DNA of 64,000 nt from Escherichia coli (GCF_965641715.1 NZ_OZ282453.1), one strand, 5' to 3'; numbered from the stretch's first letter, positions 21,528-59,077 are shown. A program made the numbers and translations. The notes: a model not told the origin generated them from the sequence alone.

Positions 21528-21572
21528 GTGAAAATCCTTGTTGATGAAAAAAATGATGACTTAATTTATTGA
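21528..21572 (+). pseudogene. pdxB: Orphaned original 5' end of pdxB (promoter-proximal start fused to phage DNA)
   Basis: gtg aaa atc ctt gtt gat gaa aa... encodes (M)KILVDE, the same N-terminal residues as the PdxB body at 57944, then diverges into phage-side sequence and stops after 14 codons. Confidence 0.65.
21531..21550. repeat. Left attachment-site core (20-bp direct repeat)
   Basis: aaaatccttgttgatgaaaa, identical to 57944..57963 at the other end of the prophage. Confidence 0.7.
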
Positions 21573-21696
21573 TGTAAAAGGATTTATGTCAGCGCGTGTC
21601 CACGCAGTGACCACATTTTCGAGTTACAGATAACACAAAGCCCGTTTTCACGGGCTTTGTGTTATCTGTAATTGTGGCTAAGCCACATGATTTATA

Positions 21697-22590
21697 CTAT
21701 TTCCAGTTACAAGCAGATTGAAGCGGTTTTAGCGCGTTTGACAGGCCGTTTAAATTGAAAGTTGCACTTACGGGGCTCTCATTATAAGGCGTTATTTTTG
21801 TATACATTTTGCTTGAGTTGGCTAGTTTTCGGATGAAATCAATGTCATTACCTTTATAAAAAACAGCCTTTGTATCTGTAGATACTAGCCAGTTTCGCTC
21901 AACTGCTTTCTGTTTATCAAGGCGATAAAGCATGCTGGTTTGTTCAAGGCCTAAATATACATCCCAACTAAGAAATACTTCGGTTTTCTTTTCTCGGCAA
22001 GCTATAAACAGAGTAGGAGTAACCGCTTCTCCAAATGGAGTTCTGATATAATCATCACTTTCTAACGATAAAATTACATTTTTCGAATCATCAATTGGCG
22101 ATGTAGTAATGGATGTGTGCCATTTTCCTACATCTGTGGCTTTCTCTAATTTTGATTCAGCTTGAACGGCTTTATCCTGTGGGAATAGTTTATCGTAGCA
22201 GTTTAGTCTGGCTTCTTTATCATTTTCTGCACGACATTTAGATATCTCAGAAAGATTTGGTTGCTGAGCCTCTGTTGTTACTGGCTTTTCCGTTTTAGAT
22301 TTTGAGTTTACAGATGGAATAAATGTTGGAGAAAAGAAACGATCATAACAAGATAAACGTCTATCATCATCTTTCTCATCAGGGCATTGATCTCTGCTTT
22401 CGAATTTTTCAGCAACTTTCGTTCGAGTCGGTTGTATTGACTTATCGTAACAAGAAAGTCTGTCTTTATTATTTTCTATTGCTCGGCACTGGAGTACTGC
22501 ATTGAAGTTCTTATGTTCAGTTGCTGCGTGAACAGGCAGTACACTAATTGATAAAAATGATGCGCCTATAGAAAAAATTATATTTTTCAT
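21697..22590 (-). CDS. Prophage cargo: secreted protein with three Cys-containing repeats, function unknown
   Basis: 297 aa, signal peptide (MKNIIFSIGASFLSISVLPVHAA), three repeats of C-x(8-10)-RL(S/N)CYD(K/R), then a ~150-aa C-terminal domain; AT-rich codon usage. Confidence 0.6.
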   Translation of the reverse strand: MKNIIFSIGASFLSISVLPVHAATEHKNFNAVLQCRAIENNKDRLSCYDKSIQPTRTKVAEKFESRDQCPDEKDDDRRLSCYDRFFSPTFIPSVNSKSKTEKPVTTEAQQPNLSEISKCRAENDKEARLNCYDKLFPQDKAVQAESKLEKATDVGKWHTSITTSPIDDSKNVILSLESDDYIRTPFGEAVTPTLFIACREKKTEVFLSWDVYLGLEQTSMLYRLDKQKAVERNWLVSTDTKAVFYKGNDIDFIRKLANSSKMYTKITPYNESPVSATFNLNGLSNALKPLQSACNWK

Positions 22591-22594
22591 TTTA

Positions 22595-22927
22595 TTATCC
22601 CTTTGGTTTAGTAAGAAATACTAAAATTCCGATAATGATATCGCCAATAACCCATAAGCTTCCAATGGTAATTAAACCTAAGCCTGTACCAATAACTGCA
22701 CCGGCTTTTTCAGCATCGGATGTGGCATTATTTATTATTTCACTAGTGCCACCTAGTCCAACTAAAAGCGTATAGATCATAAAAATATTAAATAATATAA
22801 AAACCCACTTAATGATCCGTCCAAAAAATGAACGCTTAAGTTTTTGTAGTTGTTTACCACAAGCAGGGCAATACAATGCTGAATCGCTCACCTCTTTCTG
22901 GCATTCAGGACATTTGATTAATGCCAT
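22595..22927 (-). CDS. Prophage cargo: zinc-ribbon membrane protein, function unknown
   Basis: 110 aa with an N-terminal CPEC-x(13)-CPAC zinc ribbon followed by two hydrophobic helices; 4 bp upstream of the repeat protein (probable operon). Confidence 0.6.
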   Translation of the reverse strand: MALIKCPECQKEVSDSALYCPACGKQLQKLKRSFFGRIIKWVFILFNIFMIYTLLVGLGGTSEIINNATSDAEKAGAVIGTGLGLITIGSLWVIGDIIIGILVFLTKPKG

Positions 22928-23139
22928 GTAATCCGCCTCCTTTGGATTAATACGAGTTGATGTTTGTTACAAAACATTTTGATTTTATCAGATTTTTTTT
23001 TATTGATAAGTGTCAATTGATTAGCTGGTATAGAGTGAGGCATATAGAAGGGCTGATCTGTATCAGTATGTGATGCAAAAATCCCACAGTTTCATGGAAT
23101 TTTTGCAGTTAGAGCTGTGAGATAGGGTGCCTTATCGAC

Positions 23140-23185
23140 CTTACCCTGGCAACCGATTGACGGGGGATTGCTCCCCCGTCGCGGT
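23140..23185 (-). terminator. 3' stem-loop of the hok-like transcript
   Basis: gacgggggagcaatcccccgtc hairpin just downstream of the toxin stop on the minus strand. Confidence 0.4.
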
Positions 23186-23189
23186 TTCC

Positions 23190-23330
23190 TTACTGCTTAC
23201 ACTGTAAGAACGCCGCAAACTCCGCTCCCCAGAAGCTCATCCGTATTTCGCACAGCGAACCGTGAAGCATCCAGATGATGAGGATTGCCGTCACGCAGAA
23301 CGTGATGGCCGTAAGCGATTTTTGCGACAT
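23190..23330 (-). CDS. Hok/Gef-like type I toxin (small membrane peptide)
   Basis: Hand-translated 46-aa ORF MSQKSLTAITFCVTAILIIWMLHGSLCEIRMSFWGAEFAAFLQCKQ: hydrophobic helix, then SLCEIR and EFAAF, resembling Hok-family motifs. Absent from the track because it is under 60 aa. Confidence 0.55.
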   Translation of the reverse strand: MSQKSLTAITFCVTAILIIWMLHGSLCEIRMSFWGAEFAAFLQCKQ

Positions 23331-23520
23331 AGCGCTTGCTCCTTTTTCGGGGAGGCGCTAACCTATCACTTGCTTAGGGTAGACGGTTAGGGCCTCGGTT
23401 AAACAAAAGTGTTTTCCGGGGCCTTTCCACATCTGGCCTTCGGGTATTCCCTCCGACCATCAGCCGAAAGGCACCCGCGCGTAATCTATCGCTTTTTTGT
23501 TACTCCGACAATTCTGCCTG

Positions 23521-23781
23521 TTAATTCTGAGGTAAAGGCAAACTCATCTGATTGTTTCCCCTGTGTGAAGCTGGCAGCTCATGCCACGGGATACCTTCTG
23601 ATGAGTGAACGCCGGAGGCGTGTTTCGATGTGAATTTATGGAAAGCTTCCAGTGTTGAGAAGCATACGCCGCATTCCAGATTGTTACACTGGTAATACTT
23701 TTGCCGCACGGTGTTTGAATCATTTTCCGGACGACTGGTGCGGATACGGGCAGATGCGCCACAAAGCGGACAACGGAACAT
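23521..23781 (-). CDS. ogr: Ogr/Delta-family zinc-finger late-gene activator
   Basis: Starts MFRCPLCGASARIRTSR...YYQCNNLECG, the Cys4 pattern of P2 Ogr; sits beside gene D. Confidence 0.85.
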   Translation of the reverse strand: MFRCPLCGASARIRTSRPENDSNTVRQKYYQCNNLECGVCFSTLEAFHKFTSKHASGVHSSEGIPWHELPASHRGNNQMSLPLPQN

Positions 23782-23823
23782 AGCGACCTCCCTTAACGTG
23801 GTGCTGCCGCTATTCTAAGTTGC

Positions 23824-24933
23824 TCACTCTGTTTCTGCTATCCATTCCGGGATTTTTGCTTCAAGCTCAAGCTGCGTGGTAAAGCCACTGTTATCAATGG
23901 TGTGCTCGGCTTTCGCAATAATCCAGTCCTGATTATCAATCTCGCTTTTAAATCCTGTTACCGTGCCATGCATTTCGGGGTAGAGTTCTGCTCGTCCACG
24001 TGTCAGCGTGATGGAGAATGATGCGGCTCCGCGTTGTAGTTGTTGCCACTTTGCCGCCGCTGCGCGTCTTGCTGCCTGCTCGTTCTGATAAGTCTTGCGT
24101 AACACAAACACATTGCCTTCCGCGCCTTCCATATAATCACCTTCACGGCTGCTGCTTTTCTCTTTTTTCGGTTTTGGCGGTTTGCGGCGTTTCACGCTGA
24201 CTTTTTTCTTTTTCCCGTAATTAAGATCAAGCCAGTAAGCGCGTACCCCCGTATACGCTTCGCGGTCAGCAATGCGGAACTGATGGCGATCGCCACTGCT
24301 GCGTGTGATGGCGAACGATGGCAACGGCTGGCCCTGTGCGTTCACGCCACCGCCGGGCATGATGAATAACAGATTACCGCTTTTTACCGTGGTGATTGCG
24401 CCCAGCATTTCCGCCATGCGCGTAAGGAAGGACATGTCACTTTCTTCGGTCTGGTCGGCGTGGTCGATTTCGATATCCATCAGCATTTCGCTGATTTGCG
24501 GTTTCAGACCGTACCGATGAGCGATGGCGGATACCACACGCTCAACGGTCACATCATGCCAGGACACCTCACGTTTAACGTTAAATTCATCCCGAAAATC
24601 TGCGCTTCTGGCTGAAACAGTCAGCCTGTCCGGCGGTCCTTCGTGTGCGATTTCATCAACAATGTAAGAGCCTTTTTCTGCCAGCGGTTCGCCTTTCCAG
24701 CCAATGAGAACCGTCAGGCGCGCGCCCCGTGGCGGTAGCTGCAACTGACCATCCGCATCATCCAGCGTGATGGTTAGCTGATCTGCCTCAAATCCCCGGT
24801 TGTCGGTCAGCGACAGGCTCATCAGGCGCTCTGCCACTCCGGACAGCGTTTTACCCTCCGCGAGAATATCAAAATCCGGCATTTTTACGGGGTCTGTGCT
24901 CTGACTGAGCAATTGCATGGTGGTATCGGTCAT
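23824..24933 (-). CDS. D: Tail protein gpD (late control gene D family)
   Basis: Conserved segments shared with P2 gpD (SLSLTDNRGFEADQL, RSADFRDEF, basic KKKVSVKRRKPPKPKK stretch, C-terminal GFTTQLELE). Start placed at MTDTTMQLL; the track ORF runs 44 codons further upstream. Confidence 0.8.
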   Translation of the reverse strand: MTDTTMQLLSQSTDPVKMPDFDILAEGKTLSGVAERLMSLSLTDNRGFEADQLTITLDDADGQLQLPPRGARLTVLIGWKGEPLAEKGSYIVDEIAHEGPPDRLTVSARSADFRDEFNVKREVSWHDVTVERVVSAIAHRYGLKPQISEMLMDIEIDHADQTEESDMSFLTRMAEMLGAITTVKSGNLLFIMPGGGVNAQGQPLPSFAITRSSGDRHQFRIADREAYTGVRAYWLDLNYGKKKKVSVKRRKPPKPKKEKSSSREGDYMEGAEGNVFVLRKTYQNEQAARRAAAAKWQQLQRGAASFSITLTRGRAELYPEMHGTVTGFKSEIDNQDWIIAKAEHTIDNSGFTTQLELEAKIPEWIAETE

Positions 24934-25090
24934 CTGCTTCCTCCCTGTGCGGCATGGTCGCATGTGCGTGTGGAGGGGGTTACTGCTTTTTGTTGTCGCC
25001 GTGGCGGGAGAACGGCGCAGGGGTGAGATTACGCGCGTGGTGGGTGATGATTGTTGCCGAATCATTTAACGGATACAAGGGGCTGAAGCT

Positions 25091-30675: not shown

Positions 30676-30709
30676 AAAACCGCTAATGGTCAGATTAGCG
30701 GTTATTTTG
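30676..30709. terminator. Bidirectional intrinsic terminator between gpU and the invertase gene
   Basis: aaaaaccgctaatggtcagattagcggttattttgtttt: a 9-bp perfect stem (accgctaat/attagcggt) flanked by A-run and T-run, between convergent genes. Confidence 0.7.
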
Positions 30710-31307
30710 TTTTCTGACTCTTCTCTATTGCTCCGCTTGATTCTCCTGCGGGGTGGTAACGATAAATCGTCGATGTACCAATGCCGTAAATTATTGCCAG
30801 TTGTTTTCTGTCGTGACCGTTTTTAATCAGCCTTGCTATTTGCTCATGCTGTTCTTTTGTCAGCTTCGGGCGACGTCCGCCTGTGCGCCCCCGTGCGCGC
30901 GCTGCTGCCAGTCCGGCCAGTGTACGTTCAACAATTAATTCACGTTCCATTTCAGCCAGGGCACCCATCACGTGGAAGAAAAAACGCCCCATTGGAGAAG
31001 ATGTATCTATGCTGTCGGTCAGACTGCGAAAATTAATCCCTCGCTCCCGTAGTTCCCCGACGAGAGAAATCAGATGTTTCATGCTTCGCCCGAGGCGATC
31101 CAGTTTCCAGACAACCAGCGTGTCACCTTTTTGAAGACGCTTTAAAGCGCGTTTTAATCCCGGTCGGTCTGTCTTTGTCCCGCTTAATTTATCTTCAAAT
31201 ATTTGTTCACATCCTGCACAAACAAGAGCGTTTCGTTGCAGGTCTGTATTCTGGTCATTTGTTGATACCCTTACATAGCCAATCAGCACGCTGAATCTCC
31301 CGTCCAA
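30702..31307 (-). CDS. Serine DNA invertase (Hin/Gin/Cin/Pin family)
   Basis: IGYVRVSTNDQNTDLQRNAL...GDTLVVWKLDRLGRSMKHL...MGRFFFHVMGALAEMERELIVERT, near-identical in pattern to Hin/Gin including the catalytic Ser; C-terminal HTH. True start may lie a few codons inside the ORF. Confidence 0.9.
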   Translation of the reverse strand: MDGRFSVLIGYVRVSTNDQNTDLQRNALVCAGCEQIFEDKLSGTKTDRPGLKRALKRLQKGDTLVVWKLDRLGRSMKHLISLVGELRERGINFRSLTDSIDTSSPMGRFFFHVMGALAEMERELIVERTLAGLAAARARGRTGGRRPKLTKEQHEQIARLIKNGHDRKQLAIIYGIGTSTIYRYHPAGESSGAIEKSQKTK

Positions 31308-31342
31308 AAGCGTAAATCATGCCATGCAGGTCAGAAACGGCC

Positions 31343-31368
31343 ATTATCTAAAACCTCGGTTTACAGGA
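31343..31368. repeat. Invertase crossover site, left (gix/hix-like 26-mer)
   Basis: ttatctaaaacctcggtttacaggaa, an imperfect palindrome of the Hin/Gin site type; inverted copy at 34409..34434. Confidence 0.8.
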
Positions 31369-32374
31369 AACGGTAAACAGGGCTGGTAACGCCGTGCAAA
31401 AAAATGGCGATACTTTGTCCGGTGGGCTTACTTTTGAAAATGACTCAATCCTTGCCTGGATTCGAAATACTGACTGGGCGAAGATTGGATTTAAAAATGA
31501 TGCCGATGGTGACACTGATTCATACATGTGGTTTGAGACAGGCGACAACGGCAATGAATATTTCAAATGGAGAAGCAAACAAAGCACCACAACAAAAGAC
31601 CTGATGAATCTTAAATGGGATGCTTTGTATGTTCTTGTTAAAGCTCTTTTCAGCAGTGAAGTAAAAATATCGACAGTCAATGCACTGAGGATATTTAATT
31701 CATCTTTTGGTGCCATTTTTCGCCGTTCTGAAGAATGCCTGCATATCATCCCTACACGAGAGAATGAGGGGGAAAATGGTAATATAGGGCCACTACGTCC
31801 CTTTACGCTTAATCTCAGAACTGGCCGCATAACTATGGGGCATGGTCTGGATGTTACAGGAGATATAACAACTAACGCCTGGGTGTATGCAAACAGGTTT
31901 GCTATTAATAGTGGCTCAACCTCATGGATTGATATGCGAAACCAGAATGTCATTTTTGGTAGAAACGCAGTATCAACAAGTTCTGCGCAGGCTTTGTTAA
32001 GACAAGACCATGCAGAACGCAAATTTTTTGTCGGTGGACTTGGTAACTACCAGTTTGGTTTTTACATGATTAATAACTCAAGGACAGCCAATGGCACCGA
32101 TGGTCAGGCGTACATGGACAATAACGGTAACTGGCTTTGTGGCTCGCAAGTTATTCCTGGCAACTATGGCAATTTTGATTCCAGATATGTGAGAGATGTT
32201 CGCCTGGGTACGCGAGTTGTTCAATTGATGGCGCGTGGTGGTCGTTATGAAAAAGCCGGACACGCAATTACCGGATTAAGAATCATTGGTGAAGTAGATG
32301 GCGATGATGAAGCCATCTTCAGGCCAATACAAAAATACATCAATGGCACATGGTATAACGTCGCACAGGTGTAA
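31369..32374 (+). CDS. Alternative tail-fibre C-terminal cassette (silent in this orientation)
   Basis: Frame open from the crossover site; encodes ETVNRAGNAVQKNGD..., parallel to the H segment after its own site, and ends ...INGTWYNVAQV like the expressed fibre. No promoter or N-terminus of its own. Confidence 0.75.
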
Positions 32375-32905
32375 ATGATGCAGCATTTAAAAAATATTAA
32401 GTCTGGAAATCCTAAAACGAAAGAACAATATCAGCTAACAAAGAATTTTGATGTTATCTGGTTATGGTCCGAAGACGATAAAAACTGGTATGAGGAAGTG
32501 AAAAACTTTCAGCCAGACACAATAAAGATTGTTTACGATGCAAATAATATTATTGTCGCCATCACTAAAGATGCCTCCACGCTTAACCCTGAAGGTTTTA
32601 GCGTCGTTGAGGTTCCTGATATTACAGCCAACCGCCGCGCTGATGATTCAGGAAAGTGGATGTTTAAGGATGGAGCTGTAGTTAAACGGATTTATACGGC
32701 AGACGAACAGCAACAACAAGGCGAATCACAAAAGGCCGCATTGCTTTCCGAAGCTGAATCAGTCATCCAGCCGCTGGAACGCGCTGTCAGGCTGAATATG
32801 GCAACAGACGAGGAACGCACACGACTGGAAGCATGGGAACGCTACAGTGTTCTGGTCAGCCGTGTGGATACGGCAAATCCTGAATGGCCACAAAAGCCTG
32901 AATAA
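32375..32905 (+). CDS. Tail-fibre assembly chaperone (partner of the silent cassette)
   Basis: 176 aa, [26 protein letters not shown]...; clear paralog of the oppositely oriented 177-aa ORF. Confidence 0.8.
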
Positions 32906-32933
32906 AAATTAAGGCCCGCGATCGGGCCTTGTC

Positions 32934-33467
32934 TCATTCAGGTTGTTCGGGAAATGTTACTGGCAGGCTGGAGGTGTCTGTAGATTCGACTTTCTGCGCA
33001 TAGAGCATCCACTCGGTTAATTTTTGTTTATTCTCGTCGGAAATGATGCCCAGCCGTAGCTGTGAGTCCCATAGCTGGGTTTTATCCCTAACGAGCTGTA
33101 GCAGGCTTTGCTTTTCATTTTCCGCCTGCTGCCTCTGCTCTTCCTCGGTATAAGTTCGCTTTACCACTACGCCATCTTTGAACATCCATTTACCAGAAAT
33201 ATCAGCCCGGCGATTTGCTGTAATATCAGGAACCTCAACGACGCTTGCGCCTTCTGGATTAATTGCTGAAACATCCTTTTCAATACAAATAATAACGTTG
33301 TTGTGGTCATAGACCATTTTCAACGTATCAGGCTGAAAGTTCTTTTGTTCCTCATACCAGTTTTTCCCATCCTCTGTATAAAGCCATTTGATGTTAAATT
33401 GTTTCGTTAGCTGGTATTGCTCTTTTGTTTTAGGGTTGCCAGCAGTAATATTTTTTAAGTGCATCAT
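32934..33467 (-). CDS. Tail-fibre assembly chaperone (partner of the expressed fibre)
   Basis: 177 aa, [25 protein letters not shown]...; directly downstream of H on the same strand. Confidence 0.8.
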
Positions 33468-33469
33468 AA

Positions 33470-35698
33470 TTAAATACTCCCCGCGTTATACCACGTCCCA
33501 TTAATGCAATACTGAATTGGCCTTGCCTGAGTTGTATCAATTAATTCATCACGGTTTCCGTTAACTGAACCCGTAACGACATAACCTGACCTGTCAGACC
33601 AGCCGGGACCATTCCATGTCTGAACAGATGACAGACCGCCAAGGCGAATACCTGTAATAAACCTTGAGTTACATTCTGCCTGCGTGTATGCACCAACATC
33701 TCCCGCAGAGGGTTTGCGGGTCGTGGTGTAAAACTCTGACCAGTTAGCCTCAAATCCATAACCATCACGCGCTGAACGATAAAAAATACCGCCGTTCCTG
33801 TAATTCACGCGGAACTGTACAGCAGGGCAGCTCCCCGTATTCATATTGAAGTGGAGGATTAATGTCGATGCACCGCTGATATCTGCATCATAAACACCGC
33901 TATTCCAGTTCCAGCCAACAGCTTTATCATTTGCAACCCTGCTTCCTGTTTGCCCTAAAGCAAATGCAGGCTGCTGGTTTTTCGTGTTGTAGTCTCTTCG
34001 CCAGCCAGGAGCATAAGCATCACCATGATTAATATAAGTGAATTGAGCGTTAGAGGTGCCGCCTCCGGTGGAAGTGCTTGGTGTTGTTACACGGATGGTC
34101 ATGGCACCTTTATTACCCATAACCTCAATAACGCAACCTGCAAGATGAATAGTTCCACAGCCAGTATCGGTAATAATTTTATTATTGCCGTATGACCATG
34201 AACATTTGCACATCCAGTATGGGTGATTGAATGCCCCTTGAGAATCCAGCCATTCAATCAATTGTGCCGTTGTCCAGTTCCCTGCCCCTGTACTAATAGC
34301 ACTGTGAAAAGCGCGACATGCACCAATATTTTTTGTGAAGGTATCTTTTCCTGGAATATCTGCGCCGTTCTGGTTTTTCTGTAATGCGCCAGAAGCCTGA
34401 TTTACCGTTTCTTGTAAACCGAGGTATTCGATAACGGCAGCAACGGTCGATTTCGCAAGAATATCCCGCCCGACTTTTGTCAGGGTTGCCAGGCTGGCGA
34501 CATCATTCCCCGTAAAATACGGAAACCTGTCTGCCGCAGTAGCAAGCCCGGCCAGCGCCGTCAGGGTGGCATCTTTCGGTTGCTTACCCGCAAGCGCGTT
34601 AGTCATGGTGGTCGCAAAATTCGGGTCGTTTCCCAGCGCCGCCGCTAACTCGTTCAGCGTATTCAGTGCGTCAGGTGACGAATCTACAAGGGCGGCAATC
34701 GCAGCCATAACGAAAGCCGTGCTTGCGATTTGGGTATTATTCGTTCCCTGTCGCGCAGTTGGCGTTGTTGGCGTTCCGGTCAGCGCAGGACTGTTTAAGG
34801 GCGCTTTCTTGTTCGTTTCATCCATTACCGCCTTAACCGCTTTCGATGTCGCGGCCAGTGTTTCAGACGTGCTGTTGGTGGCACTACTGAGCTGGACTAT
34901 CCCTTTTTGTGCCGTCGTGGCGTCCTGAGCGGTATATTTTGCGTTAGCAAGGTCATACGCGGCCTTTACTGCTTTCGGCGTTGCAGCCTGCGTTTCAGAC
35001 GTGCTGTTGGTGGCGCTACTGAGCTGAACTATCCCTTTTCGCGCAGTGGTAGCGTCCTGTGCGGTGTATTTGCCATTAGCCAGGTCATATGCCGCCTTAA
35101 CAGCCTTTGGCGTTGCCGCAAGCGTTTCAGACGTGCTGTTAGTGGCGCTGCTAAGTTGAACAAAGCCTTTTGCGGTCAGCGAGGCGTCCGGGTGACGTCG
35201 TGAGTGTTCATGCTCTTTCAGTTTGTCATCCACGTAATCCACTGTGGCCATTACCATGGTGTTATCCACGGTAAGCGCCACGGTGGCAGTGCTGGATACG
35301 GTCAGAATGGTGCGAAATGTTTGTGCACGTCCTGACCCTTCGGCAACGGTTGGCTTGTAACTTTCGGCAGTATTGCCTACTGCGATTAAATCGCCGTGCT
35401 CATCAAACACACCAATTTCCCGGATCCAGAATCCGCCCGTTTCTGGAGGAATAACCAGCTCCGCAATAATGCGGTTCTGATGTGTTGCGTCCAGGATGAC
35501 GCGATTAACAGTGTGTCGCCACACCTCATGCACCAGACGGGTCTGCTTACTGTCTGGTGTGGGCAACGTGCCGCCACCGTCGCCCACGGCCATATGAGTC
35601 AGGCGGACAGGCTTACCATCTGGCGCGGCTGCCTGAGCTAATTTTTTTGCACCCGTATCGGTGATAACGGTTTTAAATTTTCGTGTTGTGGTACTCAT
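33470..35698 (-). CDS. H: Tail fibre protein gpH (constant N-terminus plus currently selected variable C-terminus)
   Basis: 742 aa; conserved phage-fibre N-terminus, three tandem 43-aa repeats, crossover site near codon 421, C-terminus ...[12 protein letters not shown]. Confidence 0.85.
34409..34434. repeat. Invertase crossover site, right (gix/hix-like 26-mer, inside gene H)
   Basis: ttcttgtaaaccgaggtattcgataa, the inverted partner of the left site. Confidence 0.8.
34906..35290. repeat. Three tandem ~129-bp repeats inside the tail-fibre gene
   Basis: The DNA repeats encode [43 protein letters not shown] three times with minor variation. Confidence 0.7.
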
Positions 35699-47141: not shown

Positions 47142-47498
47142 ATGGAAATGAATATGAAAACTGTAACTGATGATGAATTTCGTGAGAACCTGAGTGAAAT
47201 TCTGGATTACCTTTCTTCCGGTGGCAGTGTCGTTATCACGGCGCAGGGAGGGAAGGATGTTGTTCTTGCTGGTTCTGATCTTAGTCCTGAAATACGGGCT
47301 GTCCTTGGCAAAACCAAAAAACTGCGGGATCAAATAAACAAAATGAAGCAACCACTCTTAATAAATGCAGTGAGAGATCTGGAAAAACGTCATCCAGCTC
47401 TTGTCGCACAGAGAAAAAAAGGATTGTCTTTTGAAGATGCAATGAAGCGTACAAGAGAAAAACATGCGGATATCATTAAAAAGCTTGAGGATAACTGA
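47142..47498 (+). CDS. Phd/YefM-family antitoxin
   Basis: N-terminal T..EFRENLSEILDYL...VVIT..GKDVVL resembles the Phd/YefM fold; stop overlaps the toxin start (ATAACTGATGG). Confidence 0.7.
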   Translation: MEMNMKTVTDDEFRENLSEILDYLSSGGSVVITAQGGKDVVLAGSDLSPEIRAVLGKTKKLRDQINKMKQPLLINAVRDLEKRHPALVAQRKKGLSFEDAMKRTREKHADIIKKLEDN

Positions 47499-47905
47499 TG
47501 GACATAGTGTTTTTGTCAAAAGAACAAGTAGAACGTATCCATGCTGAAACTTTACCCCAGAGCGGAAATGCCAATGACGGGCTACTTGAAGGTGCTTTAA
47601 ATCGCGTCAGGACACTACACTACTATGAAGGGGTTGATGATATTCATGCTCTGGCTGCTATGTATTTGATTGGTATAGCCAAGGCTCATGCCTTTCATGA
47701 TGGGAATAAACGCACAGCTTTTCAGGCTGCATCAATATTTTTAATGATGAACTCTTCCGAACTTTCAAACTCCCTGCTGCTGGTTAAATTAACGGTGTTT
47801 TCAGCAATGGGGATAGCTACCCTTGAGGAAGTTACCTTTGCTTTGAAATTGCTGTCTGATTATGGCAATGAATTAATCAGCGACTACGAAGAAGATTATA
47901 TTTAA
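47498..47905 (+). CDS. Doc-family toxin (Fic fold)
   Basis: HAFHDGNKRTAF matches the Doc/Fic core motif HxFx(D/N)GNKR; 135 aa. Confidence 0.8.
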   Translation: MDIVFLSKEQVERIHAETLPQSGNANDGLLEGALNRVRTLHYYEGVDDIHALAAMYLIGIAKAHAFHDGNKRTAFQAASIFLMMNSSELSNSLLLVKLTVFSAMGIATLEEVTFALKLLSDYGNELISDYEEDYI

Positions 47906-48071
47906 TGCTGGCATACTCTGTCGTGTTAAGACAACAGCCTTTGCGGAGACAGGGCAGGGTGCCAGACTTGCCCGCAGCGCGTCTGACATGAGCAGTTATT
48001 CATCTTTTTTATTGTTTTTCTCCATGCAGGGCGACAGTGCGCCCCGATAAAATTAAAAGCCGTCAAATTCG

Positions 48072-48407
48072 TCATTCATGCGTTTTTTCTTCATGGTCTG
48101 TCACTTCTCTCCTGATAACTTCATTGCACAAATCAACGCACTCATTGCAGATGTAAACAGACGGTCCGGCAATCACCTTTGTGACTTCGTACTGGGATTT
48201 ATTGCAGAAGCTGCAATAAATCGTCTCCTCACCTGAAGTCCATGTTTTGCTGGTTTCGCCAGACATCAGTTGTTTGAGGTCTTTTTCACGACGAAGAACT
48301 ATCTGGCCACATTCAGCTATTTTTTGGATGTTGACATTTTCTTCTTTCGCCAGCGCTTCCATCCGCTCAATCAGTCGCTGCGCTTTTTCTCTGTCAATGC
48401 GTTGCAT
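48072..48407 (-). CDS. Stand-alone protein carrying a ClpX-type N-terminal zinc-binding domain
   Basis: C-terminal half [38 protein letters not shown] is near-identical in pattern to the ClpX C4 zinc-binding domain; N-terminal 60 aa helical; no AAA+ module. Confidence 0.7.
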
Positions 48408-48470
48408 TGTGTCCCCCTTGTTTATGTTCCCGGGTTAAAGTCATCAGGGCGGATGCGCCCTGATGTTGTG

Positions 48471-48782
48471 TTATTCGGGAAATAACGCCCGGATATTTCC
48501 GGCCATCTGACTGGTTATCTGTGCGGTTGATACTGGCTGTGACGCGGGGCGTTCTGTCCTGGTTTGTGTCACTGATAACGCTTCATCATCAGCCCATGCA
48601 GCCAGTCGGTAAGCCTCTGCCGGATTCATTTTCAGAAGTGCCAGCCCGGCCAGAAAAGCCACGCGTTGGCCGCTTTTGCGCGCTTCTGGTGTAAGGCTGT
48701 CCAGCCAGGCGCATGCTTCACCTTCGTTCTTGACGGCGGCGGGCTTCAGATAGAAACTTATCCGTCTGGTTGGAGTCGTCAT
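48471..48782 (-). CDS. ParR/StbB-like partition adaptor
   Basis: ~103 aa from MTTPTRRISFYLKP...EACAWLDSL...RVAFLAGLALL, parallel to plasmid R1 ParR; directly downstream of the parM-like gene. Confidence 0.65.
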   Translation of the reverse strand: MTTPTRRISFYLKPAAVKNEGEACAWLDSLTPEARKSGQRVAFLAGLALLKMNPAEAYRLAAWADDEALSVTQTRTERPASQPVSTAQITSQMAGNIRALFPE

Positions 48783-48786
48783 TGGT

Positions 48787-49746
48787 TTACTCCTTGTCCA
48801 TTGCGTACAGCCCATTAACCAGAGCAAACTGTGGCACCCCGTCCGCGATGAAAGTCGCATTAACTCCGCAGGCTTCGCGGATAGCGGGTGCCACAATCTC
48901 CGCCCCGCCACCGACAACCATCACCCGCCCGTAACCCGAAAAAACCGCCAGCGCGCGGATCACGCGTTGTTTCAGTGTTTCTTCCTTTTCACGAATAACC
49001 GCCATCAGGCTGGCGTAATGCGCGTCATTGTGGATGTGCTGGCGCAACCAGGCTTCATCATGGCGATGTTCGATAATGGTATTGGCGATGTGGTGACTGA
49101 TACGCATACCGTTAGTGGCCATCACCGACAGTACGGCATCGGCCATCAGGGAAACGCCTACGTGTGGATCGCAAAACACCTGGCTGATACCTGCCAGTTG
49201 CCCCTGAACCTTTGCCACATCCAGTGTGGTTCCGCCCAAATCCACAATCAGCAGGGATTCAAGCGGACTCATGTCAGCCAGTGCTTTAAAGCCAGCCGGA
49301 ATGGATTCAGGCATAACCCGTACGTTACGGATAGTGAATGTTTCGCCGTTCTGGTACTCCACCGGGCGCATAACGTTCGCTTTTTTGCGGCTGATGTTGG
49401 CCATGTCCGGCTGTGCGTTTGTGTCGAAATACTCGCTCAATGGCAGGGTGACAACCACATCCACCTCCTGTGGCGTGATGCCTGATTTGACCAGCGCGTG
49501 ATGAATGGCAATGACATTCACATCGCTGTACTGGTATTGCGTGTCGGTCGTCTGGACAAAGCGATCGCTGACCGGATCAAAACCATAGCGCACGCCATCA
49601 AGCATGTAGTTCGCGGGCTGCGAGCCACCGAACGGCGCAGACCATTCCGACTTGAAGCTGTTCGGGCTGATGGCGTTGCGGCGTTCGCCGTTCTCAGTCC
49701 ATGCCAGCTTGATGTTGGTGGAGCCGTCGTCGATACAAATTTTCAT
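48787..49746 (-). CDS. ParM/StbA-like actin-family partition ATPase
   Basis: MKICIDDGSTNIKLAW...ISPNSFK...YSDVNVIAIHHAL...VMVVGGGAE...LVNGLYAM follows plasmid R1 ParM through all actin-fold motifs; 319 aa. Confidence 0.85.
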   Translation of the reverse strand: MKICIDDGSTNIKLAWTENGERRNAISPNSFKSEWSAPFGGSQPANYMLDGVRYGFDPVSDRFVQTTDTQYQYSDVNVIAIHHALVKSGITPQEVDVVVTLPLSEYFDTNAQPDMANISRKKANVMRPVEYQNGETFTIRNVRVMPESIPAGFKALADMSPLESLLIVDLGGTTLDVAKVQGQLAGISQVFCDPHVGVSLMADAVLSVMATNGMRISHHIANTIIEHRHDEAWLRQHIHNDAHYASLMAVIREKEETLKQRVIRALAVFSGYGRVMVVGGGAEIVAPAIREACGVNATFIADGVPQFALVNGLYAMDKE

Positions 49747-52645: not shown

Positions 52646-52651
52646 AGTGAT

Positions 52652-53017
52652 TTACTTCGTCATGCCATTCAGGGTGTCGCGGCAGACTGTAGCCAGCCGC
52701 TGAATTTCCAGCACGGTGTCTTCTGTGTCGGCATGGCGATGTGTGATGCGGATGCTGTCGGCAATCACATCGACGATTGCAGAGGATGGGCGCTGGTAAA
52801 TGCCAATAACGGACGGGGTGCCACCTTCAATGCGGTAAAGCCTGTAATTTCCCTCGTGGCTGTCAATCATGTAGCGACCATCAATAACAATCTTTCCGTC
52901 AGCGAGCTGCGGTACAGGCAGGGATTTCAGGTACATGTCATAACGATCACGCACGCGAGCGGCAAGATCACGTTCTGTGTTGAGCAGGTATTCAAGAAAG
53001 TCGTTGGCGAGAATCAT
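52652..53017 (-). CDS. Hypothetical early protein
   Basis: 121-aa ORF immediately upstream of gene A on the same strand. Confidence 0.5.
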   Translation of the reverse strand: MILANDFLEYLLNTERDLAARVRDRYDMYLKSLPVPQLADGKIVIDGRYMIDSHEGNYRLYRIEGGTPSVIGIYQRPSSAIVDVIADSIRITHRHADTEDTVLEIQRLATVCRDTLNGMTK

Positions 53018-53089
53018 TGCGGCAATCCTCTTGTTACAGATGTGCGAAGGCCTCCCGCCGCAAGGTGCAGGAAAGGCCCGGAACAGGAG

Positions 53090-53320
53090 TTAATGGAGTT
53101 TGTTTTGCTGCTGGATGAGCTGTTGAAGCTCGTGCAGATCATCCGCCAGATAGCTGAAAACAGAGGCGGAATAAATGTTTGATAGTGCGTGGCTGCGCTC
53201 ATGCAGCATATTGATGTGCATGATTTGCGCGACGCGTGATGCGCGGGAAAGTCTGCGGTTGATTTCAGTCTGGATGTGACGACGCTCCGCGATAGCGCGG
53301 TGTGGTTTGCGGTTTGCCAT
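53090..53320 (-). CDS. Hypothetical early protein (small, basic)
   Basis: 76-aa ORF in the early operon. Confidence 0.4.
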   Translation of the reverse strand: MANRKPHRAIAERRHIQTEINRRLSRASRVAQIMHINMLHERSHALSNIYSASVFSYLADDLHELQQLIQQQNKLH

Positions 53321-53642
53321 GGTGTGGCCCCTTGTGTAGTAAGTTGTGAAAACTCACCATCCAGAGCTGCGAAACTGTGGGTGGCGAGACGTACGAGGTT
53401 CGCAGTACCGGCTACACAAGAACCCGGCCCGACCGAAGTCGGCCCCGTACGCCCCGCCATAATTCTGACGCGAAAAAAACGTGGCAATACAGTACGCACA
53501 AAAAAACCGCTGGCGCGGTTGTGCGCTTGTGTAGTCAGCAGGCTGCGAAACCCGGCACCCGTTTTGTGAGGTGCAGCGGAAATGTAACCTGACTGATTGC
53601 GGCATGGCAAGCGGTTTTTTTGTGTGTGCATGTTCTGGTTTC

Positions 53643-54825: not shown

Positions 54826-54833
54826 AACGCCCT

Positions 54834-55121: not shown

Positions 55122-55131
55122 AAAGCACCTG

Positions 55132-55473: not shown

Positions 55474-55725
55474 GTTAAAGACTCTGTACAGATTTAATTA
55501 TTCCGGCATAGAGGCCGAACTCAAAATATTTGCGATTAAATCGCATCGCATTGTTTTCACGTTTTGCGGACTGCTGGTTCATTTTCGTTTGCCTCCGCAC
55601 ATGAGAATTGCGCCGCTTAAGAGGTAACCGAAGTTAATTGATAGTATTACAATTAACATAAGGTCCAATTTGTCCATGCCACACATAATTACCCTCATTG
55701 CAGTAGTTGCGGGTTGTCAGGTTTC

Positions 55726-55932
55726 TCACCCGATAAACCAGATAACAAACGCTATAAACATCGCCCCAATAGCTGCCGGGAAAAGTCCTTTGGTATAAGC
55801 GGCGATATATTCAATGCTGAGTTCAATAAAGCGTTCTTCATGTCCCGTTAACTTGCGAAACAAATAGATCTCTATTACGCCTATCTCAATAAAAACAAGG
55901 GTCAGAATGGCGCTGATGATATGGCTGGTCAT
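55726..55932 (-). CDS. Small membrane protein
   Basis: 68 aa with two hydrophobic helices; directly downstream of cox. Confidence 0.45.
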   Translation of the reverse strand: MTSHIISAILTLVFIEIGVIEIYLFRKLTGHEERFIELSIEYIAAYTKGLFPAAIGAMFIAFVIWFIG

Positions 55933-55938
55933 TTATGA

Positions 55939-56226
55939 CTAAAGTCCCAGCCACAACAACCATGCGTCGCGGCGTTCTTTCGGTTGCTCAAAAAACGCTT
56001 TGCGCATGCCTTCGTTAAATGCTGGCAGATATACCCAGTTTTCTGATGCACGCGTCTTTACTGAACCTGGTTTCACAAAGTCAATTGTCGGTAGCTTTGC
56101 TGCGTCAATCATGGTTCTGACTGTGGATTCCTTGCGGCCGATCATCTTGGCGAATAGTTGATATGGCACCGCTTCAAGTGGATATGGTGCTACCTGAATG
56201 AACCCCCCAAGCTCTGATTCGCTCAT
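55939..56226 (-). CDS. cox: Cox-like excisionase / early transcriptional regulator
   Basis: ...VPYQLFAKMIGRKESTVRTMIDAAKLPTIDF...NWVYLPAFNEGMRKAF...RRDAWLLWLGL parallels P2 Cox throughout. Confidence 0.85.
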   Translation of the reverse strand: MSESELGGFIQVAPYPLEAVPYQLFAKMIGRKESTVRTMIDAAKLPTIDFVKPGSVKTRASENWVYLPAFNEGMRKAFFEQPKERRDAWLLWLGL

Positions 56227-56300
56227 TGTGGTAATCTCCCTAATTCGTTCGAATGGCTCAAAATGGCTTATATCGGCTTATTTGAGTGTTTTTATGTTTG

Positions 56301-56346
56301 TGCCCGATGTGGCATGTTGCGATGGAGGATATGCCCGATATGGCAT
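56301..56346. promoter_or_regulatory. Immunity-switch operator: two 15-bp direct repeats between cox and C
   Basis: tgcccgatgtggcat (56301..56315) and tgcccgatatggcat (56332..56346), directly repeated as expected for a P2-type C repressor operator. Confidence 0.55.
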
Positions 56347-56357
56347 CTTTGTCAAGC

Positions 56358-56660
56358 ATGGGTGAAAAATTTCGCCTGATTCGTGAAGCAGAAGGTATGA
56401 CCCGCCAGGAGTTTGCGGATTGTGTTGGGCTGCCTTATGGGACGGTAACTAACTATGAGGTGAGGGGGAAGCAAGTAACAGAGGGTGCCTTACTTAAGGT
56501 TACGAAACACCCTAAATTTAAGAAGTATGCTTATTGGTTATCAACAGATGAAACGATGCCGGAGGTCGGGCAAATTTCTCCGGCTCTCTCTCTTGATGGT
56601 TCCTGCAATTCGGAGGGAGATCGCGTTTCAACCGAAAAAATCCAAAAATTATCCCGCTGA
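56358..56660 (+). CDS. C: Immunity repressor C (HTH)
   Basis: 100 aa from MGEKFRLIREAEGMTRQEFADCVGLPYGTVTNYE...KYAYWLSTDE...GQISPALS, parallel to P2 C. The track ORF (from 56286) would run through the operator repeats. Confidence 0.75.
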   Translation: MGEKFRLIREAEGMTRQEFADCVGLPYGTVTNYEVRGKQVTEGALLKVTKHPKFKKYAYWLSTDETMPEVGQISPALSLDGSCNSEGDRVSTEKIQKLSR

Positions 56661-56756
56661 GGCCAGAAAACTGGTTAGACCTGCTTTTTGTCTGGTCTGA
56701 TTATTGCTGGAAAGAGGCTGGAGAAATTGTAGAGCGGTTCATTGGAGGGCTTCGTA

Positions 56757-57761
56757 ATGTCGATTAAGAAGCTCGAAGATGGTCGTTATTTGCTGGACAT
56801 CAGGCCGAACGGACGCAAGGGAAAGCGCGTGCGTAAGGTATTTGACAAAAAATCGGTAGCGGTGGCCACTGAACGCTACATCATGGCGAACGCTGAAAAG
56901 CGGGAATATATACAGGGCTACCGTGATCGTCGAACGCTAAATGATTTGCTTGAGTTGTGGTGGATGTATCACGGCCAGCACAGGCGTAAGGCGGAAGAAG
57001 ACCGAAAACAACTGCGCAACATAATCAATGAGCTTGGCGCTGATATGCAGGCTGTGGATCTTGATAAGCTGAAAATTATCGCGTGGCGTTCTCAAAAGAT
57101 AGCTGAAGGATTGAAACCGTCATCTGCTAACAGGTACATGAATCGGTTATCCGGAATGTTTACCGTGCTGAAAAAAATAGGTCTTTGGGATGCAGAACAT
57201 CCAGTAAGGGGAATTTCTATTCTTTATGTATCTCCACGAGAAATGGCGTTCCTGTCACAGAAGGAAGTGGCGCTATTGCTCGATACACTGGAGGGCGACT
57301 ACTGGCGTGTTGCGCTTTTGTGTTTAAGCACAGGGGCGCGCTGGAGTGAAGCTTGTAAGCTTCGTGGTGAACAGATAGTTCATAACCGTGTAACGTTTCT
57401 TGAAACCAAAAATGGCCGGAAGAGAACAGTGCCAATTTCGCAGGCAGTTTGTGAGGCGATCAAAACCAGAGAAACAGGCGGCTTGTTTGAGGTGAAGTAC
57501 CGGGAATTCTGCCTGGCGCTGAAAAGAGTTAAGCCCGACTTACCAAAAGGCCAGGCTGCACATGTGCTGCGGCATACGTTCGCCAGCCATTTTGTGATGA
57601 ACGGAGGAAACATTATTGCGCTTCAGAAGATTCTTGGTCACGCAACCATTCAGCAAACAATGGCATATGCGCATTTTGCACCGGATTACCTGCAGGATGC
57701 GGTGGCCCTTAATCCGCTGAAAGGTGGCGTAAGTGTCCACGCAGTGTCCACGGGGGATTAA
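56757..57761 (+). CDS. int: Tyrosine integrase (P2 Int family)
   Basis: MSIKKLEDGRYLLDIRPNGRKGKR...LSTGARWSEA...HVLRHTFASHFVMNGGNI...MAYAHFAPDYLQDA; catalytic R, H-x-x-R and Y present; 3' end faces the attachment site. Confidence 0.9.
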   Translation: MSIKKLEDGRYLLDIRPNGRKGKRVRKVFDKKSVAVATERYIMANAEKREYIQGYRDRRTLNDLLELWWMYHGQHRRKAEEDRKQLRNIINELGADMQAVDLDKLKIIAWRSQKIAEGLKPSSANRYMNRLSGMFTVLKKIGLWDAEHPVRGISILYVSPREMAFLSQKEVALLLDTLEGDYWRVALLCLSTGARWSEACKLRGEQIVHNRVTFLETKNGRKRTVPISQAVCEAIKTRETGGLFEVKYREFCLALKRVKPDLPKGQAAHVLRHTFASHFVMNGGNIIALQKILGHATIQQTMAYAHFAPDYLQDAVALNPLKGGVSVHAVSTGD

Positions 57762-57919
57762 TTTTATATAGCCTGAAACGGCTTAAAGGGCGATACTGAA
57801 TAACAATTTTTCAGTATTGCCCGTCTAAATGGTTATGTTGTTATCTGTATGATTATTAATGTTTTTTCAGATTAAACAGCAGTTTGCAAATGGGCGTTTG
57901 TTGATAAAGGAGCCTTAGA

Positions 57920-59077
57920 TTGTCAGAGACTGAAAAAGGGTTAAAAATCCTTGTTGATGAAAATATGCCTTATGCCCGCGACTTATTTAGCCGTTTGGGT
58001 GAGGTGACCGCGGTTCCCGGGCGTCCAATCCCCGTCGCTCAACTGGCAGACGCGGATGCGCTGATGGTGCGTTCGGTCACGAAAGTGAATGAATCTTTGC
58101 TGGCAGGAAAACCCATTAAATTTGTTGGCACTGCCACTGCGGGGACCGACCATGTCGATGAAGCATGGTTGAAGCAGGCGGGAATTGGTTTTTCCGCTGC
58201 ACCTGGCTGTAATGCGATTGCGGTGGTGGAATATGTTTTCTCCTCCCTGCTGATGCTTGCCGAACGCGATGGATTTTCACTGCACGAGCGTACCGTGGGG
58301 ATCGTGGGCGTTGGTAATGTTGGTCGGCGTTTACAGGCACGACTGGAAGCGTTAGGGATTAAAACCTTGCTTTGCGATCCGCCTCGCGCTGACCGTGGGG
58401 ATGAGGGTGATTTCCGCTCGCTGGATGAATTAGTTCAGCATGCGGATATTCTGACTTTCCATACGCCACTTTTCAAAGACGGGCCGTACAAAACGCTGCA
58501 TCTGGCGGATGAAAAACTGATCCGTAACCTGAAGCCAGGAGCGATTCTGATTAACGCCTGCCGTGGCGCAGTCGTCGATAATACCGCGCTGCTGACCTGC
58601 CTGAATGAAGGCCAGAAGTTAAGCGTAGTGCTGGATGTCTGGGAAGGCGAACCGGAACTTAACGTGGAGTTGCTGACAAAAGTGGATATCGGCACGCCGC
58701 ATATTGCAGGCTATACCCTGGAAGGTAAAGCACGCGGTACTACGCAAGTGTTTGAAGCCTATAGCAAGTTTATTGGGCATGAACAGCACGTTGCGCTGGA
58801 TACATTACTACCCGCGCCAGAGTTTGGTCGCATTACACTGCATGGCCCGCTCGATCAACCGACGCTGAAAAGGCTGGTGCATTTGGTGTATGATGTGCGC
58901 CGCGATGACGCACCGCTGCGTAAAGTCGCCGGGATACCGGGTGAGTTCGATAAACTGCGCAAAAACTATCTTGAGCGCCGTGAATGGTCATCTCTGTATG
59001 TAATTTGTGATGACGCCAGTGCGGCATCATTGCTGTGTAAACTGGGTTTTAACGCCGTTCATCATCCGGCACGTTAA
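57920..59077 (+). CDS. pdxB: Erythronate-4-phosphate dehydrogenase; 5' end supplied by the prophage
   Basis: D-2-hydroxyacid dehydrogenase with [11 protein letters not shown] motif. The frame opens at a TTG (57920) preceded by AAGGAG (57908..57913), giving an SETEKGL N-terminal extension ahead of the native KILVDEN. Confidence 0.85.
57944..57963. repeat. Right attachment-site core (20-bp direct repeat) inside the pdxB 5' end
   Basis: aaaatccttgttgatgaaaa, identical to 21531..21550. Confidence 0.7.

Follow-up and report, generated by a model that had tools for sequence, protein, structure and literature searches.

A P2-like prophage within the first codons of Escherichia coli pdxB and its putative translation signals for the displaced gene

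How may a gene still be expressed when a prophage lies between its coding body and its native start? This question is raised by the window studied here, a stretch of 64,000 nucleotides of Escherichia coli DNA (GCF_965641715.1, NZ_OZ282453.1). A preliminary description, made from the sequence, had claimed a 20-bp exact repeat next to flk and inside the pdxB start, corresponding to pdxB codons 2-8 (KILVDEN), and both claims were borne out. The direct repeat AAAATCCTTGTTGATGAAAA occurs in two copies only, and comprises pdxB codons 2-7 and two bases of codon 8. It is not a chance repeat: 100 dinucleotide-preserving shuffles gave zero matches to it, even with up to two mismatches allowed. The framework of the locus is as follows.

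20434..21429, minus strand: flk, host gene on the left flank, oriented away from the original pdxB start (ORF list; annotation in a near-identical genome and in K-12)
21531..21550: att core copy on the flk side, attL in window orientation (exact repeat and four-way att alignment)
21551..57943: unique prophage DNA, 36,393 bp, or 36,413 bp with one core copy; P2-like, P88/ΦSM-type
57944..57963: att core copy on the pdxB side, attR in window orientation (exact repeat and att alignment)

In the prophage-free K-12 locus, flk adjoins pdxB and the 20-mer is present once, which gives the empty site (attB). The preliminary description had named two contrary observations, a SETEKGL-encoding sequence (see below) in a prophage-free flk-pdxB locus and loss of the 20-mer from the empty site; K-12 has neither. 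Genomes without the prophage begin to match the window exactly at 57944. Moreover, attP in the free phage genomes P88_4B11 and Chuche (from the att alignment) and ΦSM (from the record ends) equals the two phage-side arms of the window around the core. The four sites attB, attP, attL and attR are consistent with reciprocal exchange, and the sequence features of Campbell-type integration were found: core repeat, empty site, attP, an int gene by one junction, and cox. A temperate P2-like phage of P88/ΦSM type thus recombined its 20-bp attP core with the identical sequence at pdxB codons 2-8 by means of its tyrosine integrase, a standard case of site-specific integration. The junction between int and pdxB is present in 302 of the 5,426 complete E. 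coli genomes (5.6%, from diverse sources), and in 5,123 the site is empty with flk and pdxB contiguous; together they make up the 5,425 genomes in which the locus is present. Among the 5,426, the pdxB site was never seen to carry a different element.

The 36.4-kb prophage is assigned by its sequence to the P2-like phages of P88/ΦSM type, genus Xuanwuvirus, Peduoviridae. ΦSM, which is classified in Xuanwuvirus, covers 89% of the first 25 kb of the prophage (21551-46500) at 95.8% identity. With the Xuanwuvirus P88_4B11 (P884B11), the int region shares 99.8% identity; int is 96.5% identical to ΦSM int, and IMG/VR contains 100% identical copies of the integrase. In addition, the P2-type late gene order, the C/cox switch and the position of int downstream of C are all present, according to the ORFs and the annotation of a near-identical prophage. 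The genes and putative operators next to pdxB are listed here.

55939..56226, minus strand: cox, excisionase and repressor of Pc (annotated in identical lysogens and in phages as a DNA-binding protein of the Cox family)
56301..56314 and 56332..56345: two direct repeats TGCCCGAT(G/A)TGGCA, putative C operators, proposed from the sequence
56340..56660, plus strand: C-type immunity repressor, first gene of the C-int operon, facing pdxB (helix-turn-helix or transcriptional regulator annotation in lysogens and phages)
56757..57761, plus strand: tyrosine integrase int, 334 aa, co-oriented with pdxB (annotation; NCBIfam tyrosine-recombinase matches)

The putative operators flank the -10 element of a leftward Pe-like promoter, TTGACA-18-TATCCT (minus strand, 56355-56326), an arrangement that parallels O1/O2 of P2. 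Both arms of the attachment site carry further candidate elements.

21562..21573, minus strand: IHF-like site ATCAATAAATTA, putative, between the core and the cargo-side arm sites
21596..21614, plus strand: arm-type Int sites GTGTCCACgcaGTGACCAC in tandem on the cargo-side arm, with a period of 11 bp (motif search)
21627..21670: perfect hairpin of 22-24 bp distal to the arm sites; neither strand has a U-tract
57733..57751, plus strand: tandem arm-type Int sites GTGTCCACgcaGTGTCCAC, int-side arm, within the int 3' end (motif search)
57788..57822, plus strand: 13-bp hairpin 3' of int, without a U-tract

Read as its reverse complement, the cargo-side motif corresponds to the P2-type arm consensus tgTGGaCa, which in P2-type phages is directly repeated to either side of the core (PMC3448106); here too, tandem pairs flank the core on both sides. 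The IHF-like site occupies the same place as the annotated IHF site of P2 attP, with the limit that its consensus has 5 matches in 64 kb, that is, no overall enrichment. The hairpin at 21627..21670 (folding z-scores of -9.4 and -10.2 for the two strands) occupies the position of the ogr terminator in P2 attP.

On the flk side, the exchange left the native promoter region and start codon of pdxB behind, where they now open a dead-end ORF of 14 codons.

21453..21481, plus strand: candidate native pdxB promoter TTCGCA-17-GATTAT (relaxed sigma-70 scan, 8/12 matches)
21528..21572, plus strand: remnant ORF VKILVDEKNDDLIY, made up of the native GTG, pdxB codons 2-7 and phage codons; 14 codons and a stop

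As had been claimed for the flk-side copy, the native GTG at 21528 opens this peptide and translation would stop after 14 codons. In K-12 the flk-pdxB intergenic region upstream of codon 2 has the same sequence as 21453..21481, and the promoter activity of this region is presumed from the sequence.

On the other side, the body of pdxB is fused to the int-proximal arm of attP, which carries a Shine-Dalgarno sequence, a 7-nt spacer and an in-frame TTG. These are the signals that had been claimed to add SETEKGL to the N-terminus, and they are found as described.

57907..57912, plus strand: phage-supplied Shine-Dalgarno AAGGAG, 7 nt 5' of the TTG (sequence)
57920..57943, plus strand: phage-supplied TTG, then seven codons (SETEKGL) that continue in frame into the core (ORF list; PGAP start)
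57920..59077, plus strand: hybrid pdxB ORF, 385 aa, host-derived from 57944 on
57965..57967, plus strand: internal in-frame ATG (native Met9), 370-aa start (alternative PGAP start in some lysogens)

Downstream of an in-frame TAA (57905), the first start reached is the TTG at 57920. According to our reading, Met1 of PdxB would be replaced by M-SETEKGL, giving 385 aa with function kept. The hybrid protein shares 98-99% identity with PdxB from lysogens and from K-12 and scores 753 bits against the Salmonella PdxB structure 3OET; crystallised PdxB proteins also bear additional N-terminal residues. AAGGAG and TTG are unchanged in ΦSM, P88_4B11, Chuche and four lysogens. In Chuche the phage arm is even more conserved (97.8%) than int (91.2%), and this conservation may reflect binding of Int, Cox or IHF instead of selection for pdxB expression.

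RefSeq is inconsistent on the pdxB start among lysogens, giving 385 or 370 aa. The shorter form corresponds to initiation at the internal ATG 57965, which would remove KILVDEN and make the phage TTG and Shine-Dalgarno irrelevant. PGAP chose this start in strains E06 and AVS0467, and the best plus-strand consensus promoter match (9/12) spans the TTG and the phage-core junction, so that such a transcript might come from the hybrid promoter-like TTGTCA-17-AAAAAT (57920-57948). However, the internal ATG has no Shine-Dalgarno upstream and its leader would be about 10 nt, and the residues lost are conserved in PdxB of Salmonella, Vibrio and Pseudomonas and present in solved structures. A consensus 6-mer Shine-Dalgarno together with an in-frame open start is moreover improbable by chance, since it was found in just 0.3-0.6% of random phage-like flanks. 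The sequences of E06 and AVS0467 are identical to those of lysogens annotated from the TTG (385-aa PdxB; DEC5A, XJ34 and IHE3034 in PGAP/RefSeq); the difference in start is thus an annotation choice and not evidence. We consider initiation at the internal ATG improbable, and translation of pdxB from phage-derived signals well supported by what the sequence contains.

Transcription of the displaced gene is a separate matter, and it concerns two further genes.

59143..60968, plus strand: usg and truA, which follow pdxB in its operon and are likewise cut off from the native pdxB promoter (ORFs; lysogen and K-12 annotation)

The claim that pdxB is under phage-derived signals held for translation (AAGGAG, TTG); for a phage promoter, the leader has no consensus match. 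Most likely, pdxB and the downstream usg-truA would be transcribed by read-through of the lysogenic C-int operon, and a dedicated promoter within the 158-nt leader is less likely. Read-through is favoured because, as in P2, there is no terminator between int and pdxB. Both C and int point the same way as pdxB, and no terminator-like site was found between int and the TTG. The leader is poor in C (12.7%) and therefore unlike a Rho-loading site. The hairpin after int (fold of 57755-57850: -30.1 kcal/mol, z = -5.2) was not called as a terminator by the terminator scan; its G·U pair (U·G in ΦSM) is possible only in plus-strand RNA, and this restriction of wobble pairs was counted toward read-through. 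The same hairpin could attenuate read-through. A consensus scan did not locate Pc in the window; applied to P2, it likewise fails to pick out the annotated Pc.

Alternatively, a sigma-70 promoter in the phage arm could drive pdxB independently of C-int. Magaziner et al. (PMC6456863) proposed such a promoter in ΦSM, with TTGCAA (57884-57889) and TAAAGG (57905-57910). A relaxed scan offers another candidate, the weak TCTAAA-18-TATGAT at 57824-57853 (8/12 matches, 5/6 in the -10 element), and the high conservation of the phage arm would also fit. However, in the published pair the spacer is 15 bp long and the -10 is without the conserved final T. Moreover, this -10 overlaps the Shine-Dalgarno at 57907-57912; transcripts would start around the TTG without the Shine-Dalgarno, and hence both signals cannot serve the same mRNA. 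The other candidate has a poor -35 (3/6), and no plus-strand promoter with at least 9/12 consensus matches was found between int and the TTG. A dedicated promoter is consequently a doubtful possibility, and read-through from C-int is the reading that we retain.

The preliminary description had called pdxB essential. This is right conditionally, as pdxB mutants are B6 auxotrophs on minimal medium, and does not extend to all media. A different view of the locus is that insertion inactivates pdxB and that vitamin B6 is obtained or bypassed until the phage excises, a form of active lysogeny. The native start and promoter are indeed physically apart from the gene, and precise excision would restore native pdxB. 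Against this, MG1655(ΦSM) shows wild-type growth in M9 glucose, so that K-12 ΦSM lysogens are prototrophic where pdxB mutants are auxotrophic (PMC6456863). In every lysogen examined, the pdxB ORF with its phage start is also unbroken and keeps the frame, and the insertion occurs in diverse sources at the frequency given above. An active-lysogeny switch calls for a non-functional target, and with an in-frame ORF and published prototrophy it was rejected; we give inactivation a very small probability. By analogy, pdxB would be functional in the integrated state, the growth data being from a K-12 ΦSM lysogen (PMC6456863) and not from the strain of the window. Carriage in 5.6% of E. coli genomes is consistent with retained function. 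The account as a whole, comprising integration, phage translation signals, a functional PdxB and C-int read-through, we regard as highly probable.

The reading of a prophage in pdxB is correct, but it has been known since 2019 for the near-identical ΦSM. For ΦSM, Magaziner et al. (J Bacteriol 201:e00638-18; PMC6456863) reported this site together with the TTG and the Shine-Dalgarno, as well as spontaneous release of the phage and lysogenisation of K-12. ΦSM in K-12 pdxB has the same att core, AAGGAG, TTG and an identical SETEKGL-encoding sequence, and the same conclusion of a functional pdxB was drawn. The window represents a natural E. coli lysogen, whereas ΦSM in K-12 is a laboratory one. 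The identity between attP and attB is 20 bp in the window and 17 bp as reported for ΦSM, and the native pdxB start is GTG in the window, where the Lys2 codon is retained, and ATG in the ΦSM paper (PMC6456863). The promoter predicted in that paper is unsupported by the present analysis. ΦSM is a Citrobacter rodentium phage, and in that species the paper puts it in a different, traF-like gene (PMC6456863).

P2 itself shares with the prophage a C-int operon facing cox, an arm-type Int site over the int 3' end, tandem tgTGGaCa-type arm repeats on both sides, an IHF site (putative in the prophage) that separates the core from the distal arm, and a first terminator in the int direction that lies beyond the core. 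The core sequence and target differ, P2 being found at MG1655 position 2,165,238, and P2-type integrases mostly integrate between genes (PMC3448106). In the prophage 182 bp separate the int stop from the core, against about 79 bp in P2. In contrast to P2, the pdxB prophage carries a gene-restoring 5' end.

Replacement of a gene end has a different form in icd, a housekeeping ORF within which phage 21 and e14 integrate by lambdoid integrases, bringing a substitute gene end by which the gene stays functional. There the 3' end is replaced, so a new promoter, ribosome-binding site and start codon are unneeded. Islands and prophages with dusA-specific integrases (Farrugia et al. 2015, NAR; PMC4482086) likewise enter a conserved housekeeping gene at its 5' end and supply a new 5' end, with the original as a remnant at the far boundary and function proposed to be kept. 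Their target is different, their integrase family is described separately from that of the pdxB prophage, and their hosts are mainly Acinetobacter and Pseudomonas. In dusA more of the N-terminus is replaced (a beta strand), whereas in pdxB only Met1 would be replaced and seven residues added. Of the marks of 5'-end replacement, the following are found at pdxB: insertion within the 5' coding region, a remnant at the far boundary, and an in-frame start with translation signals supplied by the element.

Both statements on which the preliminary description built its prophage, a 20-bp exact direct repeat and a flk-side copy that keeps the native pdxB GTG and ends after 14 codons, were borne out. 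The window contains exactly two copies of the 20-mer AAAATCCTTGTTGATGAAAA (21531-21550 and 57944-57963), and 100 shuffles with up to two mismatches allowed gave no match to it. Translation from the native GTG (21528) at the left copy gives the 14-codon remnant VKILVDEKNDDLIY followed by a stop codon. In a four-way alignment, the prophage-free flk-pdxB locus of K-12 is an empty site in which a single core links the left flank of the left junction to the right flank of the right junction. Free phages P88_4B11 and Chuche have an attP in which the core is preceded by the phage-side sequence of the right junction and followed by that of the left junction, and joining the ends of the ΦSM record gives the same structure. 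Since K-12 attB, free-phage attP and both junctions agree, the structure of the prophage is settled. Moreover, in non-lysogen genomes the match starts precisely at 57944. A tRNA target was excluded, the window containing no tRNA gene. Strand exchange probably falls within the first 14 of the 20 identical bp, because the P88_4B11 attP core (locus L005, about 3745-3770) does not match the pdxB core at position 15 (GTTGAGGAAAAT versus GTTGATGAAAA) and its distal arm has diverged further.

The right copy is preceded by phage DNA that supplies AAGGAG (57907-57912), a 7-nt spacer and TTG (57920); all sequence statements of the preliminary description are correct. This TTG is the first start past an in-frame TAA (57905) and opens a 385-aa ORF (57920-59077). 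An in-frame open start with an upstream 6-mer Shine–Dalgarno arose in 0.3-0.6% of random flanks simulated with phage-like composition. ΦSM, P88_4B11, Chuche and four lysogens that cover the range of identity all share the same Shine–Dalgarno, TTG and seven phage-supplied codons (SETEKGL), and no variation of the Shine–Dalgarno or TTG was found in divergent lysogens. Between Chuche and the window the arm is 97.8% and int 91.2% identical; conservation of the arm could also be explained by binding of Int, Cox and IHF.

PGAP places the PdxB start at the TTG (385 aa) in DEC5A, XJ34 and IHE3034, whereas for E06 and AVS0467 it chooses an internal ATG (57965; native Met9, 370 aa). This split of RefSeq annotation runs between the lysogen loci L002, L003 and L134 (385 aa) and L132 and L133 (370 aa). 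Junction DNA, Shine–Dalgarno, TTG and reading frame are the same across these differently annotated lysogens. The residues KILVDEN, which would be lost with the internal start, are conserved in PdxB of Salmonella, Vibrio and Pseudomonas, and crystallised PdxB proteins bear additional N-terminal residues; hence a short N-terminal extension appears plausible and truncation does not. The PdxB N-terminus of carrier strains is probably altered, and its RefSeq annotation is inconsistent.

The attachment site has the same layout as that of P2. Its elements around the core are as follows:
57733-57751 (inside the int 3' end) and 21596-21614, tandem arm repeats GTGTCCACgcaGTG(T/A)CCAC with 11-bp period, flanking the core on both sides (motif search)
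21562-21573, candidate IHF-like site between core and distal arm (consensus match)
21627-21670, perfect 22-24-bp hairpin just outside the distal arm sites (z near -10 for either strand), without U-tract on either side

Read on the opposite strand, the arm repeats give the P2-type arm consensus tgTGGaCa (PMC3448106), the P2 record annotates an IHF site at the equivalent position, and the ogr terminator of P2 occupies the place of the hairpin. In the free phage this hairpin lies downstream of int, across the core, and integration therefore removes it from the int transcript; sib-like retroregulation of int is conceivable.

The preliminary description had further placed pdxB expression under phage-derived signals. 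For translation this is well supported; the one qualification is that for transcription it is a tentative reading. Integration has severed pdxB and the downstream usg-truA from the native promoter. The relevant features are:
21453-21481, candidate native pdxB promoter, TTCGCA-17-GATTAT (relaxed scan)
56340-56660, plus strand, C, directed toward pdxB
56757-57761, plus strand, int, directed toward pdxB

Transcription from the native promoter region would now serve the 14-codon remnant alone and run toward the large hairpin and a converging cargo gene. For pdxB itself, we give an even to slightly better than even chance to transcription by read-through of the Pc-C-int operon. This reading is favoured because C and int point into pdxB, a scan found no terminator-like site after int, and several further features agree. 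A 13-bp hairpin at 57788-57822 lacks a U-tract, and its G·U pair, replaced by U·G in ΦSM, can form only in plus-strand RNA, which suggests transcription of this region from int toward pdxB. With 12.7% C, the 158-nt leader is poor in this base and therefore unlike a Rho-loading site. In P2, annotated record and scan agree that the first terminator in the int direction lies beyond the attP core, so that integration splits the lysogenic operon from its terminator.

A promoter within the leader could instead drive pdxB. A relaxed scan offers TCTAAA-18-TATGAT (57824-57853, 8/12 matches) as its best candidate, and a consensus scan of the plus strand from int to the TTG detected no promoter; scanning by consensus did not find Pc in the window and likewise missed the annotated Pc of P2. 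The promoter predicted for ΦSM (PMC6456863), TTGCAA (57884-57889 in the window) with TAAAGG (57905-57910), has a 15-bp spacer and a -10 without the final T that overlaps the Shine–Dalgarno. Its transcripts would start at about the TTG and lack the Shine–Dalgarno, so the two are mutually exclusive, and this prediction is probably wrong. Taken together, we regard a leader promoter as rather unlikely, and other explanations share the small remainder. If read-through of Pc-C-int is extended to its consequences, pdxB-usg-truA of the lysogen would form a 3' extension of this operon, and host B6 synthesis would lose native growth-rate control, come to rely on the lysogenic promoter of the prophage and be switched off when Cox represses Pc upon induction; we hold this fuller proposal tentatively, at somewhat less than an even chance. 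If B6 synthesis does couple to the phage lysogenic promoter, a host cofactor pathway would have a built-in transcriptional link to prophage state; among complete E. coli genomes, about 5.6% would have it.

This frequency derives from the int-pdxB junction, which 302 of the 5,426 complete genomes carry (about 1 in 18), carriers including O55:H7 DEC5A, O145:NM and O111 strains and ExPEC IHE3034. Another 5,123 have the empty site in contiguous form. Occupied and empty sites account for all 5,425 genomes having the locus, and hence no other element was seen at the pdxB site among them. When 650 bp of phage DNA is included, the left junction matches only 224 genomes versus 302, because the adjoining cargo varies (e.g. 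in Chuche). An integrase scan with one genome per species gave 43 loci in other species, at most 82% identical, none beside pdxB and none providing an independent variant of the replacement 5' end. This shows pdxB specificity to be, judging from integrase similarity, a property of a narrow clade. Most IMG/VR prophage calls end at the int stop and are thus uninformative on the junction. The 'previously unknown' site of P2-like ΦD145 was excluded as pdxB, being at MG1655 position 950,293, and a DFI-seq paper on UPEC mentions pdxB and prophages with no connection to the pdxB-prophage locus.

The gene order of the 36.4 kb between the repeats is that of a P2-type phage (ogr, D, sheath/tube/E/T/U, tail fibre, baseplate, lysis, capsid, terminase, portal, gene A, cox, C, int). 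Among sequenced phages, Citrobacter phage ΦSM (Xuanwuvirus, Peduoviridae; 89% coverage, 95.8% identity over the first 25 kb) comes closest, and the int region shares 99.8% identity with Xuanwuvirus P884B11. The window represents lysogeny that arose naturally in E. coli, by a phage with 96% identity to ΦSM and the same signals. Further features of the prophage are:
21697-22927, minus strand, flk-side cargo adjoining the junction: a 297-aa protein, then a 110-aa zinc-ribbon protein
about 23190-23330, minus strand, Hok/Gef family gene (placed via correspondence with locus L001)
30702-31307, minus strand, DNA invertase of the invertible segment
31340-31404 and 34374-34438, 65-nt inverted repeats of this segment
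31394-32374, plus strand, alternative fibre tip of this segment
32375-32905, plus strand, chaperone of the alternative tip
32934-35698, minus strand, expressed H/G fibre genes, opposite the alternative tip
47498-47905, Doc-like toxin, abutted by a 118-aa ORF
48072-48407, minus strand, small ClpX-zinc-finger-like protein
48787-49746, minus strand, ParB/partition-like protein
53377-53464, minus strand, C4 antisense RNA (Rfam, above gathering score, 83 bits)
53500-53574, minus strand, isrK (Rfam, above gathering score, 64 bits)
56355-56326, minus strand, Pe-like promoter, TTGACA-18-TATCCT

The 297-aa protein is named 'T6SS-associated TagO' by PGAP, its VasI-like domain scoring under the NCBIfam cut-off; in Chuche this position is taken by a DNA methyltransferase and Com. 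The invertible tail-fibre segment spans 30702-35698. The old/tin position of P2, from the portal/cos end to replication gene A, holds cargo here (47142-49746); the Doc-like toxin and 118-aa ORF look like a toxin-antitoxin pair, and PADLOC gave only weak defence-system matches there, for the Doc-like protein. The C4 and isrK matches sit in the early operon, overlapping a 205-aa regulator-like ORF (53014-53631). This region resembles a P1/Gifsy-type antirepressor-control module, here within a P2-like phage, and might be related to the inducibility reported for P88-type phages. Direct repeats TGCCCGAT(G/A)TGGCA at 56301-56345 flank the -10 of the leftward Pe-like promoter; they are arranged like the O1/O2 operators of P2 and by this analogy are probably binding sites for the C repressor.

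The observation of the preliminary description is thus confirmed and its interpretation supported, and the prophage is a clear example of an element that targets the conserved 5' coding sequence of a housekeeping gene and carries the repair along, sparing the host the cost of auxotrophy. Consistent with this, MG1655(ΦSM) and wild type grow alike in M9 glucose, a medium in which pdxB mutants are auxotrophic (PMC6456863). In its native host C. rodentium, ΦSM resides through the same 17-bp sequence in a traF-like gene and not in pdxB (PMC6456863); the integrase therefore follows a short core sequence and not the gene, and there the phage-supplied start would be irrelevant. Both the general principle and the pdxB case are already published. 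Integration at a 5' end with an element-supplied replacement is documented for dusA-specific islands (PMC4482086), and Magaziner et al. 2019 (PMC6456863) mapped ΦSM in K-12 to a 17-bp site at the pdxB 5' end, noted the phage TTG with AAGGAG at -7 and predicted the -35/-10 pair. Our description differs from theirs in the extent of identity, which is 20 bp here versus 17 bp, in the native start being GTG, and in retention of the Lys2 codon.
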